Source of the DNA: an uncultured Ruminococcus sp.
Lineage (GTDB): Bacteria > Bacillota > Clostridia > Oscillospirales > Ruminococcaceae
Direction of reading: 5' to 3'
Assembly (NCBI GenBank): GCA_900539835.1
Contig: UQDR01000006.1
Location: forward strand, 34,255 to 98,254
Length of the DNA: 64,000 bases
Shown here: positions 4,877 through 48,597 of the stretch, in pieces
Position numbering within the stretch: position 1 is the stretch's first letter
Layout of the letters: the number at the start of each line of letters is the position of its first letter
Position numbers and translations under genes: made by a program
The notes under the pieces: model-generated
The model's input: the letters and a program-made list of their open reading frames with translations, nothing else
The model's database searches: none
What the model was told of the DNA's origin: nothing

Positions 4877-5787
4877 GCCATATTATCCAAGTTAAAAATC
4901 TGAAGAAGTCTTATGGTGCAGTAGAGGCAGTTAAGGGAATAGATTTTTATGTGGAAAAGGGGCAGCTTTTTGCTTTTCTCGGACCAAATGGAGCTGGAAA
5001 ATCTACAACTATTGATATGCTTTGTACATTTTTGAAGCCTGACAGCGGAGAGGTGGTTGTGGACGGCTATGTACTTGGCAAAGACGATAATGGCATTCGT
5101 AATTCTATCGGAGCTGTCTTTCAGGACGGATTGTTAGATAAATTGCTTACTGTAGAGGAAAATCTCAAAATGAGAGGAAGCCTTTACGGTAAAAAAGGTG
5201 CTGAGCTTAAAGAAGCTGTGGATAAAGCTTGTGAGGCAACAGGCATAACTAATATTATGAAACGTCAATATGGTAAATTGTCAGGAGGTCAGCGCAGACG
5301 CTGTGATATTGCAAGAGCGTTGATTAATTCTCCTAAAATTCTTTTCCTTGACGAACCTACAACGGGACTTGATCCTCAAACCAGAAAAAATGTTTGGGAA
5401 ACAATAACACAGCTTCAGAAAAAACTTAATATGACTATTTTTCTTACAACGCACTATATGGAAGAAGCCGCAAACGCAGACTATGTTATCATAATTGATG
5501 ACGGAAAGATTTCTGCACAGGGAACTCCTTTGCAGCTAAAAGAAAAGTATACATCAGATAAAGCGATAATGGAATGCAATCAAGTGGAATCTGTAGAAAA
5601 GATACTCATTGAAAAGAATGCTGATTATAGCCGTCAGGGAAGTGTTATAACTGTAAAATTTGCATACTCAAAGGATGCCATAGATATTCTCTCTCTTTGC
5701 CGTGACTATATAAACAGCTTTGGGGTTCTAAGCGGAACAATGGATGATGTTTTTATTGAAGTAACAGGAAAGGAGATAAGAGAATGA
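4873..5787 (+). CDS. ABC transporter ATP-binding protein
   Basis: Walker A GPNGAGKST, signature LSGGQRRR and Walker B ILFLDEPT. Confidence 0.9.
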   Translation: MSHIIQVKNLKKSYGAVEAVKGIDFYVEKGQLFAFLGPNGAGKSTTIDMLCTFLKPDSGEVVVDGYVLGKDDNGIRNSIGAVFQDGLLDKLLTVEENLKMRGSLYGKKGAELKEAVDKACEATGITNIMKRQYGKLSGGQRRRCDIARALINSPKILFLDEPTTGLDPQTRKNVWETITQLQKKLNMTIFLTTHYMEEAANADYVIIIDDGKISAQGTPLQLKEKYTSDKAIMECNQVESVEKILIEKNADYSRQGSVITVKFAYSKDAIDILSLCRDYINSFGVLSGTMDDVFIEVTGKEIRE

Positions 5788-31899: not shown

Positions 31900-33033
31900 T
31901 TATATACTGATACAATTTAAAACTGCTGTTGCTCTGTCTTTTTCGCTCGGATATAAGTGAGAGTATGTGCTTAGTGTAATAGAGATATCAGAATGACCTA
32001 ACCGTCTTGCTACCTCTTGTATATTAATACCATTGTGCACAAGCATACTTGCATGGCTATGCCGGAAATCATGCAATCGTATACGTTTCAAGCATGCTAA
32101 ATTAGCGAATTTTTCGTTTGCAGCTCTCACAGCGCTATCTCGGATGGGATGTATACCACCGCATATATATTCTGTATGATGATAAACCCCTTGTTCTTTG
32201 ATTCGGTTTCTATGAGTTTCTATAACAGTTTTTAAAGGTGTTGGAATAGTAATATCACGGATTGACTGTGCATTTTTGGGAGGTGTAATTCTATCACTTC
32301 CCTGAAGTTTCTGATTAAGGGATTTTGTAATATAAATAGTATCATCCTTTAAATCATCCCATGTCAAGGCATAAATTTCACCTTTACGCATACCACAAAA
32401 AAATGCTATGCAAAAAAAGACATAATAATTCCATGCATATGCATTTCCACAAGATTCCTGTTCAACACACCATTTTTTAGCGGCTAAAATATATAATTTA
32501 AACTCATCAAGAGTGTAGAAATCCATCTTTTTTGGTGGTTCTAATGGTGCTCTAAACGTACCGATTTTATCAAGTGGGTTTGTAGCGATATACTCCATTT
32601 TTACACCGAAGTTTAGCAATGCGTGAAATTTTTTATAAATAGCTCGTTCTGTGTTAATCGAATAACCTTTAGCAGCAATGTTGTTTTTCCATTCTTGCAA
32701 GATTGCGGGATTTAACTTATCAAGTCGATATTCACCTAAATCCGGTAAGATATGTTGAGTAATAATTTGATTAGTATTGTTGAGTGTACTCTCTCTTATC
32801 TCATGACTTTTGGCCTTAATGAATTCATTATATAATGTCTGTATGGTTAAACGCTGTGAAGGCTTTTGCTGTTTAATCTGATAACTTAATTCACGCTCCA
32901 GTTGTTTGGCTTCTTCGTTGCCATAAGCAACACGGTCAATTTGTTTTGAGTTACCATAGCTGTCAACGTAATTAATACGCACACGGTATTTTTGCTTGCC
33001 GTTTTTCTTGCCTTGCATTTTATAAATCGGCAT
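31900..33033 (-). CDS. int: tyrosine-type site-specific integrase
   Basis: C-terminal catalytic motifs HDFRHS..LGHSDISITLSTYSH..Y. Confidence 0.9.
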   Translation of the reverse strand: MPIYKMQGKKNGKQKYRVRINYVDSYGNSKQIDRVAYGNEEAKQLERELSYQIKQQKPSQRLTIQTLYNEFIKAKSHEIRESTLNNTNQIITQHILPDLGEYRLDKLNPAILQEWKNNIAAKGYSINTERAIYKKFHALLNFGVKMEYIATNPLDKIGTFRAPLEPPKKMDFYTLDEFKLYILAAKKWCVEQESCGNAYAWNYYVFFCIAFFCGMRKGEIYALTWDDLKDDTIYITKSLNQKLQGSDRITPPKNAQSIRDITIPTPLKTVIETHRNRIKEQGVYHHTEYICGGIHPIRDSAVRAANEKFANLACLKRIRLHDFRHSHASMLVHNGINIQEVARRLGHSDISITLSTYSHLYPSEKDRATAVLNCISI

Positions 33034-33166: not shown

Positions 33167-34099
33167 TTATTTTAACAACTCTTCCCAATCATCGGGGAAC
33201 CCCATTTCTTTTAATATTTGGTGCCGATAATAATCGTTTAAGTGGTTAAATGAGGTAGTTACAATAGTAGATAAATCGGTTGTAAAATTAGAAAAATCTC
33301 TTTGTGGCAATAAATATTTTAAACAAATACAAACATTAAAGAGATCATTTTTGCTTTTGCTGCAATAATCAGGAAGTGTTTTGTGTATAGGTAAATCAAT
33401 TATTGAACTTTTAGTTTTAAAGTTATAAAGTCGCTCGCCATGAGCACATACATTTCTAAATTTAGAAAGAACATTTAACATAGAAGATAGTTGATTACCA
33501 TATACATCTTTAAAATTTCGAGCAATTTTACTTTGTAATTCTTGTCTTGAAAAAGAAAACAATTTAGATAAGTTTCCGAAGGTTAATGTTTGAATTATTA
33601 CCCATAGAGGAATAGTGTCATGCTTCTTCTTATAATGTTCTATATATTTATATTTGGATGAATTATCAATGTTATTTTTGATTATAGATACGCAAGTATT
33701 AATTTCACATTGGTATTTTTTATAATTATAGTTAGTTACATTTAGGTAGTCATTTTGTTTGTCACCATATGTTTCGCAGAAATGATATGAATATAGTGAT
33801 TTTATATGTTTCTCAATTGAGATTATTCTATGTAAGAAAATATTACGTAAATAATCATCTAAATAATAAAGATTAACCATGTCTTCAAAGCAAGAGTCTG
33901 ATCTGTAGTTTCCGTTTCGTTCTATTTTAAATATGTCTTTATAGCCAGAAACAAGAGAATAGTAACTGAATTCCTTTAAAAAAACAATAGCCTTTTCTTC
34001 ATTAATAAATGATAATTTTTTCTCTTTTAACAGTGCTATTTGTTCATCATAAGTCATAAAAATTTTATCTGGTTTCATAAAACAAAAAACCCCCTGCAT
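33167..34099 (-). CDS. Abi_2 (AbiD/AbiF-like) abortive-infection family protein
   Basis: 310 aa. The FGNLSKLFS and RNVCAHGERLYN motifs match the Abi_2 family. Confidence 0.65.
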   Translation of the reverse strand: MQGVFCFMKPDKIFMTYDEQIALLKEKKLSFINEEKAIVFLKEFSYYSLVSGYKDIFKIERNGNYRSDSCFEDMVNLYYLDDYLRNIFLHRIISIEKHIKSLYSYHFCETYGDKQNDYLNVTNYNYKKYQCEINTCVSIIKNNIDNSSKYKYIEHYKKKHDTIPLWVIIQTLTFGNLSKLFSFSRQELQSKIARNFKDVYGNQLSSMLNVLSKFRNVCAHGERLYNFKTKSSIIDLPIHKTLPDYCSKSKNDLFNVCICLKYLLPQRDFSNFTTDLSTIVTTSFNHLNDYYRHQILKEMGFPDDWEELLK

Positions 34100-34971: not shown

Positions 34972-36591
34972 TTAATTAGCAGGACTTATCGACCAATCTC
35001 CATCTGAAGTAATTTCAAAAAACATACTTCCTGAATCATCAGAACGTACAACACCGTTATAATTACCAATTTCGTTTACAAGAAGATCATAGTCGCCTTC
35101 GTTTTCTGTATAATGAGCTTTAACAGAAAAGTAAGCCTCTGAATTATTATTGGTTATTTTCCAATTGTGATTTGTTGTTAAAAATACGCTTGTTACGGAG
35201 TCACCATGTCCATTGAAAGATGAACCGTCTGTTATACCTATAGCAAATGCATTAATAGACCAGTTGCCGTCTGAACTAATTTCAATGTCATAATTACCGC
35301 CCTCTGGAATTAAAACAGTTCCATTATAAGGGCCTATTTCGTTTACTAATAATTCGTAATCACCTGTGTCGTTGTTGTGTGCTTTTACAGAAAAATAACG
35401 AGAACCATCATGTGATATAGATAATACTCCATAATGTTCTACAATTAATCCTTGTGCCACATAGTCACCTGTTCCGTTTGCACTCCAGCCATTTACTGCT
35501 GAGGGATTATAAAGTGTTTTCACTGGTTTAGTAGTTGGTCGTTTAGTCGTAGTTGTTGGTTTTGGCATTGTAGTCGTTGCGGTGCTTGTATTTGTATTAG
35601 TTTCATAATATTCAGCTTTTAGGGTTGGTACATAATCAGTTACACCTGTCAAAGCACGTTCAAGTTTTGATGTACCGTCATACGTGCCGTAAAAAGTTAC
35701 TATATCATCTTCTAATATTCTGGACTCATCTTCACTTAAATAGTATTCAACATACCATTCTTTATCTAAATAAGTATCTCCTGAATGAATATCGTAGTCC
35801 TCATAACAACGGTAAGCATTCGTTGAAAAGCCACTTGACATAACTTGTTGTACTTCAACAGTAATTTTTAATTTTTTTCCTACATATGTATTTGGATTTC
35901 TCGCTAAATCTTTATATGAAACCTCAATACAACTTGCTATAAAGTTCTCTTTATCTTTTTTAGCTTGTTCTTGTTTTTTCTGTTCCTCTAATTTTTGTTT
36001 TTGCTGTTCAACTTGTTCCTTTTTTCGCCTAACTGCTTCTTGTGCTACACGATCAGCTTCCGCTGTATCTTTCTCTGATTGAGCATCTTCATAGTAAATC
36101 TTTTCACTATTAGCAGCTGTTGTTTTTGGAACTGTTGTAGACACATTTGCATCACTATTCTCTTTTTCACTTGGCGGTGCAACAAAGACAGTAATAAAAA
36201 CTATAGCGATAAAAATAAGTAAACTAATTAAAATAATTTTGGCAGTGTTATTTCTGAAAACGTAATCTAAACTTTTGTTTGCATTTTCATTTATAGGTTT
36301 AGGAGTTAAACATTTTGAACATATCTCATCTGCACCTTTATTTTCTTGATTACAAATCGGACAAGTCCAAGAAGATGAAGAATCAACATTTTTGCTATTG
36401 CTATAATCCATTTTGAAATCACTATCTTTATGAAAAATTTCTCTTTTAATTTCATCAATAGTCATTGTTTTGATTTTTTCTTCAGGCAACTGTGCTTGAA
36501 GATAGCATGATTCGCATATAAACCCGTCAAGGCAACGATATTTTTTCTCTAATAAGCCTAATTCTGTTCTGCAAACTTTACATTCTCTCAT
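34972..36591 (-). CDS. zinc-ribbon membrane-anchored protein with a coiled coil, T/P-rich linker and two tandem ~75-aa beta-rich repeats
   Basis: Two CxxC..CxxC ribbons, one TM segment, a KKEQVEQQKQKLEEQKKQEQ coiled coil, linker TNTNTSTATTTMPKPTTTTKRPTTKP, and an internal repeat YFSVKAH..GDY(E/D)LLVNEIG.YNG.. Confidence 0.6.
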   Translation of the reverse strand: MRECKVCRTELGLLEKKYRCLDGFICESCYLQAQLPEEKIKTMTIDEIKREIFHKDSDFKMDYSNSKNVDSSSSWTCPICNQENKGADEICSKCLTPKPINENANKSLDYVFRNNTAKIILISLLIFIAIVFITVFVAPPSEKENSDANVSTTVPKTTAANSEKIYYEDAQSEKDTAEADRVAQEAVRRKKEQVEQQKQKLEEQKKQEQAKKDKENFIASCIEVSYKDLARNPNTYVGKKLKITVEVQQVMSSGFSTNAYRCYEDYDIHSGDTYLDKEWYVEYYLSEDESRILEDDIVTFYGTYDGTSKLERALTGVTDYVPTLKAEYYETNTNTSTATTTMPKPTTTTKRPTTKPVKTLYNPSAVNGWSANGTGDYVAQGLIVEHYGVLSISHDGSRYFSVKAHNNDTGDYELLVNEIGPYNGTVLIPEGGNYDIEISSDGNWSINAFAIGITDGSSFNGHGDSVTSVFLTTNHNWKITNNNSEAYFSVKAHYTENEGDYDLLVNEIGNYNGVVRSDDSGSMFFEITSDGDWSISPAN

Positions 36592-36645
36592 AATTCTGTC
36601 ACTCCTAAATTATTGCTTTTTTGGCGCTCATATATCCGCTTGAAA

Positions 36646-37134
36646 TTAATCACTTGTTTTAACGAACAAATCTTCAAAATAGTGTAAATCATCAAAAAAT
36701 TGATCTATCTCTGATTGAGTAGGAGCTTTTTCTTTCATTTTTTCGAAGAAAGATTCCATACTGTTTGTTAAATCTTTTAATTCATCTAATAACTGATCAT
36801 TAAAATCATTTAGAGTGTTATTGCTGTAGTATTTTGAAAGTGTATTTGTATTGTCTAATATGTTACGTTGAACTTCATCATGAAGAATATATAATTTTAA
36901 AGTTAAATCATGAGCTTGTTCTTGAGTCAAAGTACTATTGGTAATATATAAATCACACATATCAGAAAAAAGGGAATAACATTTCTGAGCTTGTGTTAAT
37001 TCTGTATATGAACTGTTATATATCGCTTCGTCTGAGTTGTCGTTGTAATTTGCTTTGCAGGAAGCAAGACCCAATATAAAAGTAAGACATAACACAAAAT
37101 ATATTATTTGTTTCATAATTCTGTCACTCTCCAA
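36646..37134 (-). CDS. lipoprotein, hypothetical
   Basis: Lipobox LASC. 162 aa. Confidence 0.5.
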   Translation of the reverse strand: MESDRIMKQIIYFVLCLTFILGLASCKANYNDNSDEAIYNSSYTELTQAQKCYSLFSDMCDLYITNSTLTQEQAHDLTLKLYILHDEVQRNILDNTNTLSKYYSNNTLNDFNDQLLDELKDLTNSMESFFEKMKEKAPTQSEIDQFFDDLHYFEDLFVKTSD

Positions 37135-37614: not shown

Positions 37615-37956
37615 CTAACTCTGCTCCTCCAACCAAATTAAGTACTCTACATAACTGATAAGACCTTTTAGAGTTTCCACGTCATCAATAGACTCTACAA
37701 GGGCAATCATACTTTCCTTGAACTCTTCGATGTTTTCATCGGAGGGTTCTTTTTGTATGCAGTAATCTTGAAAAATAAAATTTGGTTCGCAGTCAAGAAC
37801 TTCAAATAGTTTATGAAAATTAGCCTCTTTAGGAGAGGTTAATTCTACTTCCCAACTGCCAATAGCGCCAGCAGATACGCCCATTAAATCGGCAAGTTCT
37901 TTTTGAGATAGTCCTAACTGTTCCCTACGTTCTTTTATACGTTTGCCTGCCGCCAT
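37615..37956 (-). CDS. XRE-family phage repressor (cI-like)
   Basis: HTH LSQKELADLMGVSAGAIGSWE. Divergent from the cro-like gene. Confidence 0.8.
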   Translation of the reverse strand: MAAGKRIKERREQLGLSQKELADLMGVSAGAIGSWEVELTSPKEANFHKLFEVLDCEPNFIFQDYCIQKEPSDENIEEFKESMIALVESIDDVETLKGLISYVEYLIWLEEQS

Positions 37957-46061: not shown

Positions 46062-46253
46062 ATGGAAATCATTTTGTTAAACGGAAAGACGATAGAGATC
46101 AACAGCAAAGAAGAACTTTACAAACATTTTGACAACTGCCGATATCCTGTCTCCGATGCTGTTAATGCACGGAGCGAGGGAATAATCAATGAAGATGAGT
46201 ACTATGAAACAATGAGAAGCGTTTTTAAGAGAGGGGATAGGAATGACCATTAA
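46062..46253 (+). CDS. hypothetical protein
   Basis: 63 aa. Confidence 0.35.
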   Translation: MEIILLNGKTIEINSKEELYKHFDNCRYPVSDAVNARSEGIINEDEYYETMRSVFKRGDRNDH

Positions 46254-46692
46254 AGAGTATTTAAGTCAGCTGACTGATATAAGGTTGAGGATTGAGGCAA
46301 TAGAACGTTCAATTGAAAAGTGCTATTCAAATGCAGAAAAAACAACATCTACGACATCGGAAGTACCGAATCATACTTTGGGTACGACTTCAAACAAGGT
46401 TGAGGAGAATGTGCTGAAAGTAGTTGAATACAAACAACAACTTGAATCACTTGAAAATCAATTTGAAGAATTTGCATTTCGTGCTACTTGTGAGATTAAT
46501 AAGATACAAGACAATGTGCTTGTTGCATTACTAATAAATAAATATGTATGCGGATTAACATGGGAAGAAGTTTCGGAAATAATTGATAAAAATCTTGATT
46601 ATACAAAAAAGGAGTTACATACTAAAGCATTGAAAGAGTTTGAAAAAATGAATCCCAATTATCCCTCGAAATCCCCTTGTATTCCTGCTTAA
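46243..46692 (+). CDS. putative late-gene transcriptional activator (ArpU/RinA-like, sigma region-4-like HTH)
   Basis: C-terminal VLVALLINKYVCGLTWEEVSEI..KKELHTKALKEFEK resembles a sigma-70 region 4 HTH. It sits just upstream of the packaging module. Confidence 0.5.
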   Translation: MTIKEYLSQLTDIRLRIEAIERSIEKCYSNAEKTTSTTSEVPNHTLGTTSNKVEENVLKVVEYKQQLESLENQFEEFAFRATCEINKIQDNVLVALLINKYVCGLTWEEVSEIIDKNLDYTKKELHTKALKEFEKMNPNYPSKSPCIPA

Positions 46693-46964: not shown

Positions 46965-47050
46965 GTCTCGTTAGCTTAATAGGTAAAAGCGTTGTTCGAA
47001 CACTACAACAAGATTTGGGTATGCAGGTTCGACTCCTGCACGAGACACCA
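46965..47050 (+). tRNA. tRNA-like gene with aberrant anticodon/variable region (86 nt including CCA)
   Basis: 7-bp acceptor GTCTCGT/ACGAGAC, D arm GCTT/AAGC, T arm GCAGG-TTCGACT-CCTGC, discriminator A and CCA. However, there are 31 nt between the D and T arms, with TTGTT..(T)ACAA around a 9-10 nt loop. Confidence 0.45.
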
Positions 47051-47093: not shown

Positions 47094-47120
47094 CAGCAGT
47101 CGTTAGGCTGCTGTTTTGCT
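47094..47120 (+). terminator. rho-independent terminator
   Basis: CAGCAG-TCGTTAGG-CTGCTG followed by TTTTGCT. Confidence 0.65.
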
Positions 47121-47193
47121 ACTATTAAAATTTATTTGTACATATTGAAAATTCTAAATGTTTGTGGTATCATAAAATAGGGGTTGAGTTAAG

Positions 47194-47607
47194 ATGCCAT
47201 TTGAGGAAGTAAGATATACTAATTTTGATCATTTAATTATTCCAAAAGATTATGCTGAAGCAAGTGGATGCGGAGAAAAGCACTGGCTTTATGATACAGC
47301 AGCTAAAGAAATTGTTGGTTTATTCAAATATCCCAAGAAAAATACTTATGAGCACATAGCTGAACACATGGCATCAAGTCTAGGAAATTATATTGGCATT
47401 CCATGTGCAAAAATTGATTTAGGAACGTATTATAATAGACAGGGGTGCTTAAGCTATCTTGTTTATGATAAGAAAAGTCATCCCGAATTAGAACTTATTG
47501 AGGGTGTTAATCTATTAAAAATTCAATATCCAAATTATGATGAAAATAGATTGATTGATATAAGCACTGGAGAAAGATATTCCAGACTTTTTTCAAGATT
47601 TAAATAG
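47194..47607 (+). CDS. HipA-C-like protein fragment (kinase N-lobe-like region)
   Basis: 137 aa. The stretch GEKHWLY..IVGLFKYP..EHIAEHMASSLGNYIGIP..YLVYD..LIEGVNLL aligns by motif with the first half of the HipA_C domain (QxKF..KFP..NE..MxLAxxxGI..RFDR..EDFCQL). AT-rich. Confidence 0.4.
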   Translation: MPFEEVRYTNFDHLIIPKDYAEASGCGEKHWLYDTAAKEIVGLFKYPKKNTYEHIAEHMASSLGNYIGIPCAKIDLGTYYNRQGCLSYLVYDKKSHPELELIEGVNLLKIQYPNYDENRLIDISTGERYSRLFSRFK

Positions 47608-47608
47608 A

Positions 47609-47881
47609 ATGAAAGCCCTTGTAAACAGTAAGTCAAGATCATGTATAAAAATAAATAATAATAAGAATACTCGTCATGTAGATGTCATAAAATATGCTAT
47701 ACAAAAAAATTATATACCGATAGATCTAATAATGTTTATTGTTGAGATTGTTAGTCATAGTATAGATGATTTAATAAATAGCTATTCAAAGGTTATTTCA
47801 GACCAAAGGCAACAACTTATATCATATTTTCTAAAATCAAAGATAGCATTATTAAGATCCATTTGTGAAAGGAGGATATAA
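47609..47881 (+). CDS. small protein with a degenerate HipA catalytic-loop-like segment
   Basis: 90 aa. IVEIVSHSIDDLINSYS resembles vFNvligNtDDHlKNfS with the His and Lys lost. Separated from the upstream ORF by TAG-A-ATG and overlaps the next ORF in TAATG. Confidence 0.3.
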   Translation: MKALVNSKSRSCIKINNNKNTRHVDVIKYAIQKNYIPIDLIMFIVEIVSHSIDDLINSYSKVISDQRQQLISYFLKSKIALLRSICERRI

Positions 47882-48558
47882 TGAATACTCTAGAAATTTA
47901 TTGGCAAAATCCTGAAACCCGAGAAAGAAGCCTTGTAGGCTTTTTAGAAGACAACGAAAATGAATATATATTTAAATATTCACAAAACGTTATTCAAGGA
48001 AAGGTAACAGGATTTAAACCTATTTATCCTTTTTTAAATTATGAAAAAGAATATAGATCTATGTCCATGTTTTCAAATTTTTTAAATAGAATACCCAGTC
48101 CTAAAAGAAATGATATAAATGATATATTAAAAAAATATGGGTTAGAAGAATATGATGAGTTTAATTTATTAGTTAAAAGTGGAGGACGTACACCAGCAGA
48201 CAACTTAGAATTTATATCACCGATTGATACAACAGCAAATAAAATTATAAGAAGTTTTTATATTGCTGGTGTATCACATGGTGAATTTTGCTTAGGTCAA
48301 TGTGATGATTCTTGTTTATCAGAAGTTACTGATTATGAAATTAAACTTTGTAAAGAACCGGATAATATACATGATCAATATGCTATTAAATTGTTAGTTG
48401 AAGGCAAAAAAATTGGTTACATTCCAAAATACTATTCTAAAAGTGTAACAGAGTTGATTAATAATAATTATAAGATAAATATATTTATTGAAAATATAAA
48501 TAATGATGAAAAAAATTGTAGAGAATGTGTTAAAGTAATACTAAAAGCAGAAAAATAA
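47881..48558 (+). CDS. HipA-N-subdomain-1-like (HipS-like) plus C-terminal HIRAN domain fusion protein
   Basis: The N-terminus FSNFLNRIPSPK..ILKKYGL..DEFNLLVKSGGRTPADNLEF follows the HipA_N pattern F.NLLPEG..R..GL..D.F.LL...G.DcaGAl.F. The C-terminus IAGVSHGEF..EPDNIHDQYAIKLL..GKKIGYIPKYY matches the HIRAN fold signature. Confidence 0.5.
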   Translation: MNTLEIYWQNPETRERSLVGFLEDNENEYIFKYSQNVIQGKVTGFKPIYPFLNYEKEYRSMSMFSNFLNRIPSPKRNDINDILKKYGLEEYDEFNLLVKSGGRTPADNLEFISPIDTTANKIIRSFYIAGVSHGEFCLGQCDDSCLSEVTDYEIKLCKEPDNIHDQYAIKLLVEGKKIGYIPKYYSKSVTELINNNYKINIFIENINNDEKNCRECVKVILKAEK

Positions 48559-48570
48559 ATATTAAACAAA

Positions 48571-48597
48571 ACAGCCCCCCGGGGCTGTTTTTGTTTT
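48571..48597 (+). terminator. rho-independent terminator
   Basis: ACAGCCCC-CC-GGGGCTGT followed by TTTTGTTTT. Confidence 0.8.

Follow-up and report, generated by a model that had tools for sequence, protein, structure and literature searches.

A probable prophage-borne hipIN (PDC-M03) copy with a kinase gene broken by a 209-nt deletion

What is the AT-rich island of three genes that lies upstream of terS in a prophage of an uncultured Ruminococcus species? The island occupies positions 47194-48558 of a 64,000-nucleotide (nt) stretch of DNA (contig UQDR01000006.1, positions 34,255 to 98,254), which we call the window. It consists of three open reading frames (ORFs), all on the + strand: ORF1 (47194-47607, 137 amino acids (aa)), ORF2 (47609-47881, 90 aa) and ORF3 (47881-48558, 225 aa). 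ORF1 and ORF2 meet in a TAG-A-ATG junction and ORF2 and ORF3 in a TAATG overlap. These ORFs and junctions are just as an earlier reading of the letters alone (the original prediction) had reported them. That reading proposed a permuted and split HipA-like pseudokinase coupled to a sensor of DNA ends, in an arrangement it did not recognise as described, and it kept a decaying HipA locus as a fallback. We find that the fallback was essentially right. The arrangement has been described, both as hipIN (PMC8262856) and as PDC-M03. With a probability of about 0.93, the island is a prophage-borne copy of this module in which a 209-bp repeat-mediated deletion has destroyed the kinase gene, hipI, and left the partner gene, hipN, intact. 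ORF1 and ORF2 are the 5' fragment and the called part of the 3' fragment of hipI, and ORF3 is hipN.

One kinase gene broken by a deletion

We compared ORF1 and ORF2 with several profile libraries. A Pfam search matched neither ORF. On Pfam alone, the HipA signal would look unsupported; the PADLOC and PHROGs profiles, together with intact relatives, settled the identity of the kinase. Both ORFs matched the PADLOC profile PDC-M03A, ORF1 at positions 3-120 of 293 (2.5e-34) and ORF2 at positions 199-289 (3.3e-14), each match spanning less than half of the profile. In PHROGs, they matched the two ends of phrog_8728, ORF1 at positions 5-108 of 307. Because the two ORFs fall at opposite ends of the same PADLOC and PHROGs profiles, they represent one protein from which about 80 central residues are missing. 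The original prediction was right to see in ORF1 the N-terminal portion of the kinase core of a HipA-family protein. Searched against PDB, a profile of the intact kinases matched CtkA, a HipA-type kinase of H. pylori, over nearly its full length (5e-13), Legionella HipT over the catalytic core only (1.6e-6), and HipA (2e-4). Judged by these profile matches, the kinase belongs to the HipA superfamily.

The intact form of the gene was found in the 90%-identity cluster of ORF1, which also holds P0124, a 298-aa protein encoded on contig L039. P0124 matches PDC-M03A over its full length (2.3e-87), and its residues 22-28 form a Gly-rich loop, ASGCGEK. From its N-terminus through ...GERYS it agrees with ORF1 in every residue, and at its C-terminal end it agrees likewise with ORF2. 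At the nucleotide level, L039 and the window are identical over about 950 nt save for the first 6 nt, which lie at the contig end, and a segment of 209 nt that the window lacks. This segment is bounded in L039 by two perfect 15-nt direct repeats, TGGAGAAAGATATTC, at positions 527-541 and 736-750. In the window, the sole surviving copy of the repeat marks the deletion junction at 47568-47582 (+). A deletion between direct repeats points to replication slippage or short-homology recombination. Two other features of this junction were set aside. A 7-nt imperfect microhomology, suggested as the breakpoint repeat by a comparison with L001, a contig of a related phage, gave way to the perfect 15-nt repeat revealed by the near-identical allele in L039. 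A weak terminator-like hairpin at 47567-47585 is made by the 15-nt repeat sequence itself, and we do not regard it as meaningful.

The length of the deletion accounts for the split. Since 209 leaves a remainder of 2 when divided by three, the downstream part of hipI is thrown out of frame, and ORF1 thus ends after seven aberrant codons. Residues 1-130 of ORF1 are the native N-lobe of the kinase with its Gly-rich loop and are 100% identical to residues 1-130 of P0124; the last seven codons are out-of-frame read-through past the deletion. The 3' fragment of hipI extends over 47567-47881 (+), in the +1 frame relative to ORF1, and corresponds to residues 195-298 of the intact kinase, which a tblastn search of P0124 against the window recovered at 100% identity in frame 2. 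The called ORF2 starts at an internal Met codon of this fragment with no Shine-Dalgarno sequence upstream. ORF1 and ORF2 are thus a single kinase gene, interrupted by a recent deletion of 209 nt that shifts the frame, and not a kinase that is split and permuted by design.

The residues lost by the deletion are LDMIFNCLINNKLRWRFMLVPIFDFIIGNSDRHQSNWAILRNNITYNMSLAPLYDNGSSLCSKILEKDI. They include the catalytic loop, GNSDRHQSNW, and the Mg-binding motif, YDNGSS, both of which the intact allele and every intact relative retain. The deleted segment takes in the family-invariant residues D161, R162, H163, N166 and Y184-D185-N186-S188-S189 (L001 numbering). Hip kinases have four conserved motifs (Gly-rich loop, ATP-binding Lys region, catalytic loop and Mg-binding motif), and the window copy has thereby lost two of them. 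An active kinase from ORF1 and ORF2 is excluded in principle because the catalytic Asp, His and Asn and the Mg-binding Asp are absent. The original prediction had looked for the catalytic loop in ORF2 and had read the letters DD-LIN as a degenerate version of it. These residues belong to an ordinary, conserved C-terminal helix (IDDLINSYS), which the intact kinases carry besides the true loop. Thus, the toxin arm is dead in this copy: the island can provide neither a kinase toxin nor abortive infection, and the one product left to it is an orphan HipN.

Of the two alleles, the deleted one predominates. It was found in about 20 contigs from at least nine sequencing runs and several assemblers, in ENA, Logan and NCBI sources, always with 100% nucleotide identity. 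The intact allele was met once, in the single 1.2-kb contig L039. Because the deleted copies are identical in every nucleotide, the recurrence of the 137 + 90 + 225 aa layout across contigs reflects one clone and not evolutionary conservation.

The intact partner gene and its setting in the prophage

We then considered the third ORF, which the original prediction had described as a HipA N-subdomain-1-like (HipS-like) region fused to a HIRAN domain. ORF3 matches the PADLOC profile PDC-M03B over its full length (1.7e-66), and its PHROGs match is phrog_8026. Pfam HIRAN was found at 36.6 bits (4e-9), above the gathering cut-off of 24.7. Pfam Couple_hipA reached 17.4 bits in ORF3, below its cut-off of 22.5, and 25.7 bits, above the cut-off, in the 69%-identical protein of L001. 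Of the domain searches that the original prediction had suggested, HIRAN thus came out as expected; Couple_hipA stayed sub-threshold in ORF3, and Pfam was silent on the kinase fragments.

Structure prediction gave a clearer picture of the N-terminal domain. An AlphaFold2 model of ORF3, computed from a 66-sequence alignment, has a pLDDT of 91.2 and a pTM of 0.84 and divides into an N-domain (residues ~1-115) and a C-domain (residues ~120-225). When we searched PDB with Foldseek, the N-terminal half matched 7vkb_B, which is HipS (102 residues) in a structure of the HipT complex from Legionella (TMt 0.82, rmsd 2.3 Å), and more weakly the HipA N-terminus, while the C-terminal half matched the HIRAN domain of HLTF (E 7e-5, probability 1.0) and also lp_0118. 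When PDB was searched with a sequence profile of ORF3, HIRAN alone came up and HipS did not; the HipS-like fold emerged through structure prediction and Foldseek. The HIRAN motif EPxNxxDxxAI is conserved. On the predicted model, then, ORF3 is an intact fusion of a HipS-like domain to HIRAN, in line with the original prediction. The ORF is probably expressed, to judge from its upstream region: a strong Shine-Dalgarno sequence, AGGAGG, stands 7 nt upstream of its start. ORF3 also aligns with positions 329-532 of phrog_26212 (2.7e-11), the C-terminal part of this 547-position profile. That family may hold fused kinase-HipS-HIRAN (HipL-like) proteins, in which case such forms would occur in phages too.

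The island stands out from its surroundings in composition. Its GC content is 0.27 versus a window mean of 0.36 (sd 0.032 over 1365-nt segments); only 0.08% of such segments match this low value, and the island is the lowest-GC segment of the window, in line with its earlier description as AT-rich. A promoter-like site found by a consensus scan (TTGAAA, a 17-nt spacer and a TG-extended TATCAT) lies ahead of ORF1 at 47145-47173 (+). Its hexamers are kept in L001 although the rest of the upstream DNA there has diverged, and the site is a candidate promoter of the module. A terminator scan placed an intrinsic terminator at 48568-48591 (+), with a 10-bp stem, five G-C pairs and a T-run, which closes the module. 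Upstream of the island are a phrog_36 transcriptional regulator (46243-46692), a tRNA gene (46965-47050) and a terminator-like hairpin; downstream follow terS, terL and the portal gene. In this respect the original prediction holds: the island is cargo of the phage that precedes terS and ends in a terminator of its own.

Three further features of the prophage deserve mention. The phage-borne tRNA gene at 46965-47050 (+), followed by the hairpin at 47094-47113, was called by ARAGORN as an 86-nt tRNA-Val(AAC) and scored 48.9 bits with the Rfam tRNA model. Its anticodon arm is abnormal: one drawing gives a stem of 4 bp that contains a T:T mismatch, with G replacing U33, and the other gives a stem of 5 perfect pairs and a loop of 9 nt (TCGAACACT). 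The variable region is about 14 nt. The clonal copy L005 has this tRNA gene, whereas the relatives L001-L003 lack it, and it could be a degenerate or non-canonical decoding tRNA. At the lysogeny end of the prophage, a second defence-type gene, of the AbiD/Abi_2 family (33167-34099, -; PADLOC AbiD 1.8e-64, Pfam Abi_2 4e-45), adjoins the integrase gene (31900-33033, -). Between this gene and an HTH_3 repressor (37615-37956) lies a second low-GC patch, 34972-37134 (-), with a GC content of ~0.275 around 36.1-37.6 kb. The patch contains a 539-aa ORF, matched only by DUF4428 at its N-terminus, and a 162-aa ORF without matches, and may be further cargo of the lysogeny module.

The direction of decay and its rival explanations

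We surveyed relatives of both genes. Single-sequence homology searches returned only 2 clusters for ORF1 and 5 for ORF3, given their word-index sensitivity, and a profile search was needed. It recovered 538 clusters of the ORF3 family at E <= 1e-5, mostly from Clostridia, with source names such as 'HIRAN domain-containing protein', 'DNA-binding protein' and 'HipA N-terminal domain-containing protein'. In the relatives L001, L002 and L003/L004, as in the allele encoding P0124, the kinase is one uninterrupted gene: a single HipA_C gene of 296-303 aa is followed directly by a partner of 224-227 aa that is 49-69% identical to ORF3. The single frame that the original prediction had proposed to look for was thus found, and the three-gene layout was not conserved: it repeats in the 100% identical clonal contigs only, and the diverged relatives have two genes. 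The original prediction had also said that a frameshifted hipA with an intact hipB partner elsewhere would count against it. The related genomes do show ORF1 and ORF2 to be a broken gene, but its partner is HipN, not HipB.

The module behaves as accessory cargo of temperate phages. L001 carries the pair at the same spot, upstream of terS, terL and portal, and its terL and portal are 88% and 79% identical to those of the window. Neither hipI nor hipN occurs in the 80 viral contigs whose terL is related (51-60% identity); only 4 of them share terS and none shares the upstream regulator. The absence of the module from these 80 contigs marks it as accessory. In a blastn search of the region against cultured phages, terS was the sole match. 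An intact pair is present in a cultured phage, Clostridioides phage phiCDKH02, where it adjoins the integrase gene. Carriage by temperate phages, upstream of terS or beside the integrase, would suit a module that serves superinfection exclusion or prophage addiction.

Which of the two genes is lost when the module decays? A survey seeded with the partner (PDC-M03B) gene covered 25 loci (3 from a viral scan, 22 from a genome scan) plus the intact relatives L001-L003. About 21 loci had an intact kinase gene overlapping the partner gene, and five were kinase-defective. Only kinase residues 1-54 remain in L020 and a remnant of ~30-40 aa in L025, and in both the partner is retained. L032 likewise has a kinase remnant of ~30-40 aa, and its partner is truncated as well. 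In L036, an internal deletion has removed approximately residues 134-282 of the kinase and a HipS-only partner is kept. A reciprocal scan seeded with the kinase covered about 45 loci, all on viral contigs. The partner gene was present at every locus with enough downstream sequence, and at one locus (L052) the kinase was frameshifted and the partner intact. The order of kinase then partner, with overlap, was common to the ~21 partner-seeded and the ~45 kinase-seeded loci, and none of these loci combined an intact kinase with a broken partner. The kinase is thus lost while the partner is kept, and the reverse was not seen. This asymmetry is independent comparative support, though not proof, for the assignment of HipI as toxin and HipN as antitoxin. 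Also grouped with the kinase-defective loci are the IMG/VR viral contigs L015 and L016. Each carries a stand-alone HipS-like ORF of ~122 aa (4974-5342 in both), 40% identical to the N-domain of ORF3, and no Hip kinase was detected within 5 kb upstream. These ORFs could be orphan antitoxin-like genes on phages.

How would an intact module work? By analogy with HipBST and HipA, and following Gerdes et al. 2021, the HIRAN domain of HipN would bind DNA 3' ends and might either detect phage DNA as it enters or replicates or take part in autoregulation. HipI, once freed, may then phosphorylate an essential component of translation and so cause growth arrest or abortive infection. The kinase targets HipA -> GltX and HipT -> TrpS are both aminoacyl-tRNA synthetases.

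Several points weigh against reading the island as a decayed hipIN copy with these roles. The toxicity of HipI, its neutralisation by HipN and an anti-phage role of the pair are suggested by analogy with HipBST and HipA, and we found no experimental test of hipIN or PDC-M03 in the searchable literature, so both are predictions. Membership of the HipI clade of Gerdes is putative and draws on architecture and superfamily membership. The partner-seeded survey is biased against loci with a broken partner, a bias that the kinase-seeded survey, being confined to viral contigs, corrects in part. Finally, the deleted copies are all identical and so carry no evolutionary signal on selection for the fragments or for the orphan hipN.

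This last point bears on the most serious alternative, which we consider unlikely: that the loss of the kinase was adaptive, the deletion allele having spread by selection and the orphan HipN having been kept, for example as an anti-defence or anti-addiction antitoxin against HipI/HipL-type kinases of the host or of competing prophages, or to bind DNA ends. The deleted allele is indeed by far the more frequent, with its many contigs from separate runs set against the single short contig of the intact one, yet this abundance may reflect one successful host or phage clone, and with zero divergence among the copies persistence under selection cannot be shown. hipN is intact, with its strong Shine-Dalgarno sequence and with the promoter and terminator of the module preserved. 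Independent losses of the kinase with retention of the partner also recur (L020, L025, L036, L052), and the HipS-only ORFs of L015 and L016 stand on viral contigs without a kinase trace. However, decay that begins with the toxin is expected of any toxin/antitoxin pair, on a neutral or a purifying path, since prior loss of the antitoxin would kill. The asymmetry therefore calls for no new function. Nor does the 64-kb window contain a Hip kinase gene of the host. In its sharpest form, the alternative makes the orphan HipN an anti-defence 'antitoxin mimic' that the phage derived from a defence module, neutralising the HipI/HipL abortive-infection kinases of hosts or rival prophages, with the kinase deletion selected for that reason. 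We regard this form as doubtful too; were it true, the recurrent kinase losses and the HipS-only ORFs of L015 and L016 would be the footprint of the conversion.

The same clonality undermines the initial idea of a deliberately split, permuted and catalytically dead three-gene pseudokinase with a DNA-end sensor, an undescribed defence or anti-defence system. Three packed ORFs with coupled stop/start junctions suggest such a design, as does the repetition of the layout in many contigs, but those contigs belong to one clone. An otherwise identical allele has the kinase in a single gene, one repeat-mediated deletion of 209 nt accounts for the split, and the more distant relatives all have one uninterrupted kinase gene. 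ORF2, furthermore, begins at an internal Met without a ribosome-binding site, and the two-gene architecture is one already described. We therefore regard this design as refuted by the intact allele. Just as little weight falls on a mis-assembly across the 15-nt repeat in a genome that truly has an intact hipI. The deletion endpoints do coincide with a direct repeat, but 15 nt is far below the k-mers used by assemblers (contig names k141_...; Logan unitigs), and the same junction appears in ENA, Logan and NCBI contigs from at least nine sequencing runs.

Taken together, these results favour a hipIN copy that has lost its kinase by a repeat-mediated deletion. The value of this copy is modest: its architecture has been known since 2021, and it is non-functional as a kinase system. 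The intact allele in L039 and the deletion allele nevertheless form a natural isogenic pair, a ready control for assays of toxicity or defence.

Comparison with known Hip kinase systems

We compared the island with known kinds of Hip system. In HipBST of E. coli O127 and Legionella pneumophila (HipT kinase, HipS antitoxin, HipB regulator), as here, the kinase is short and N-subdomain-1 is found in a separate, HipS-like polypeptide. The N-domain of ORF3 superposes on Legionella HipS (7vkb_B), and the kinase profile matches Legionella HipT. In contrast to HipBST, a tricistronic hipB-hipS-hipT operon in which a free-standing HipS of ~100 aa is encoded ahead of the kinase, the kinase gene comes first in the island, the HipS-like domain is fused to HIRAN, and the similarity to HipT is remote (E ~1e-6, catalytic core only). 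No ORF for HipB or another HTH protein lies between the promoter and the terminator of the module. HipL, a single polypeptide (Gerdes 2021, PMC8262856), has the kinase core, the HipS-like domain and HIRAN in the same N-to-C order. Unlike in HipL, the kinase and the HipS-HIRAN protein are encoded by two genes with a slight overlap in every intact relative examined: in these and in the intact allele, the kinase ends in a stop codon and hipN has its own ATG and Shine-Dalgarno sequence.

HipAD, or DS-6, is a validated anti-phage system in which the catalytic residues of the kinase are required (DefensePredictor, Science 2026, PMC13092281). Like the module described here, it pairs a HipA-family kinase with a partner other than HipB, and it is a precedent for Hip kinases in defence. 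Its partner is a DUF3037/DUF1829 protein, however, not HipS-HIRAN, and it belongs to a different family.

The closest counterpart is hipIN, which consists of the HipI kinase and the putative antitoxin HipN and corresponds to clade XI in the tree of Hip kinases (Gerdes, Baerentsen & Brodersen 2021, mBio, PMC8262856). In that description, HipI has 279-321 aa, lacks N-subdomain-1 and carries a Gly-rich loop near its N-terminus, and HipN combines a HipS-like domain with HIRAN; in the authors' proposal, HIRAN detects the ends of phage DNA and frees the kinase, which leads to abortive infection. The island resembles hipIN in the order of kinase then partner, in its Firmicutes origin, in the HipS-like and HIRAN domains of ORF3 and in the position of the kinase remnants directly upstream, with the TAATG overlap of a bicistronic pair. 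The intact allele resembles it further in its length of 298 aa, in the lack of N-subdomain-1 and in the Gly-rich loop near the N-terminus. The window copy differs from hipIN because its kinase is split into 137 + 90 aa and so falls outside the HipI length range and lacks the full set of four motifs, whereas the intact P0124 agrees in length and Gly-rich loop. The 2021 paper also makes no mention of a temperate-phage location, such as the site upstream of terS in the window and in L001 or that beside the integrase gene in phiCDKH02. A 2025 paper in Nucleic Acids Research (NAR) reports HipA/HIRAN (HipI) clusters adjoining diDNase genes and terms them predicted defence genes. Beside the hipIN pairs, we observed close kinase relatives with a HipS-only partner (~130-146 aa, no HIRAN), a hipJS-like layout that is intact in L014, L034 and L035 and kinase-deleted in L036. 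This layout fits the suggestion that hipJS derives from hipIN via loss of HIRAN (Gerdes et al. 2021, PMC8262856).

The same two-gene module is listed as a phage defence candidate, PDC-M03 (PDC-M03A plus PDC-M03B), in PADLOC-DB v2. ORF3 and P0124 match its B and A components over their full lengths; the window differs in its A component, which is present as two partial fragments covering profile positions 3-120 and 199-289. Thus, the arrangement was already known as hipIN and as PDC-M03, and the copy in the window is a decaying member of it rather than a new system.

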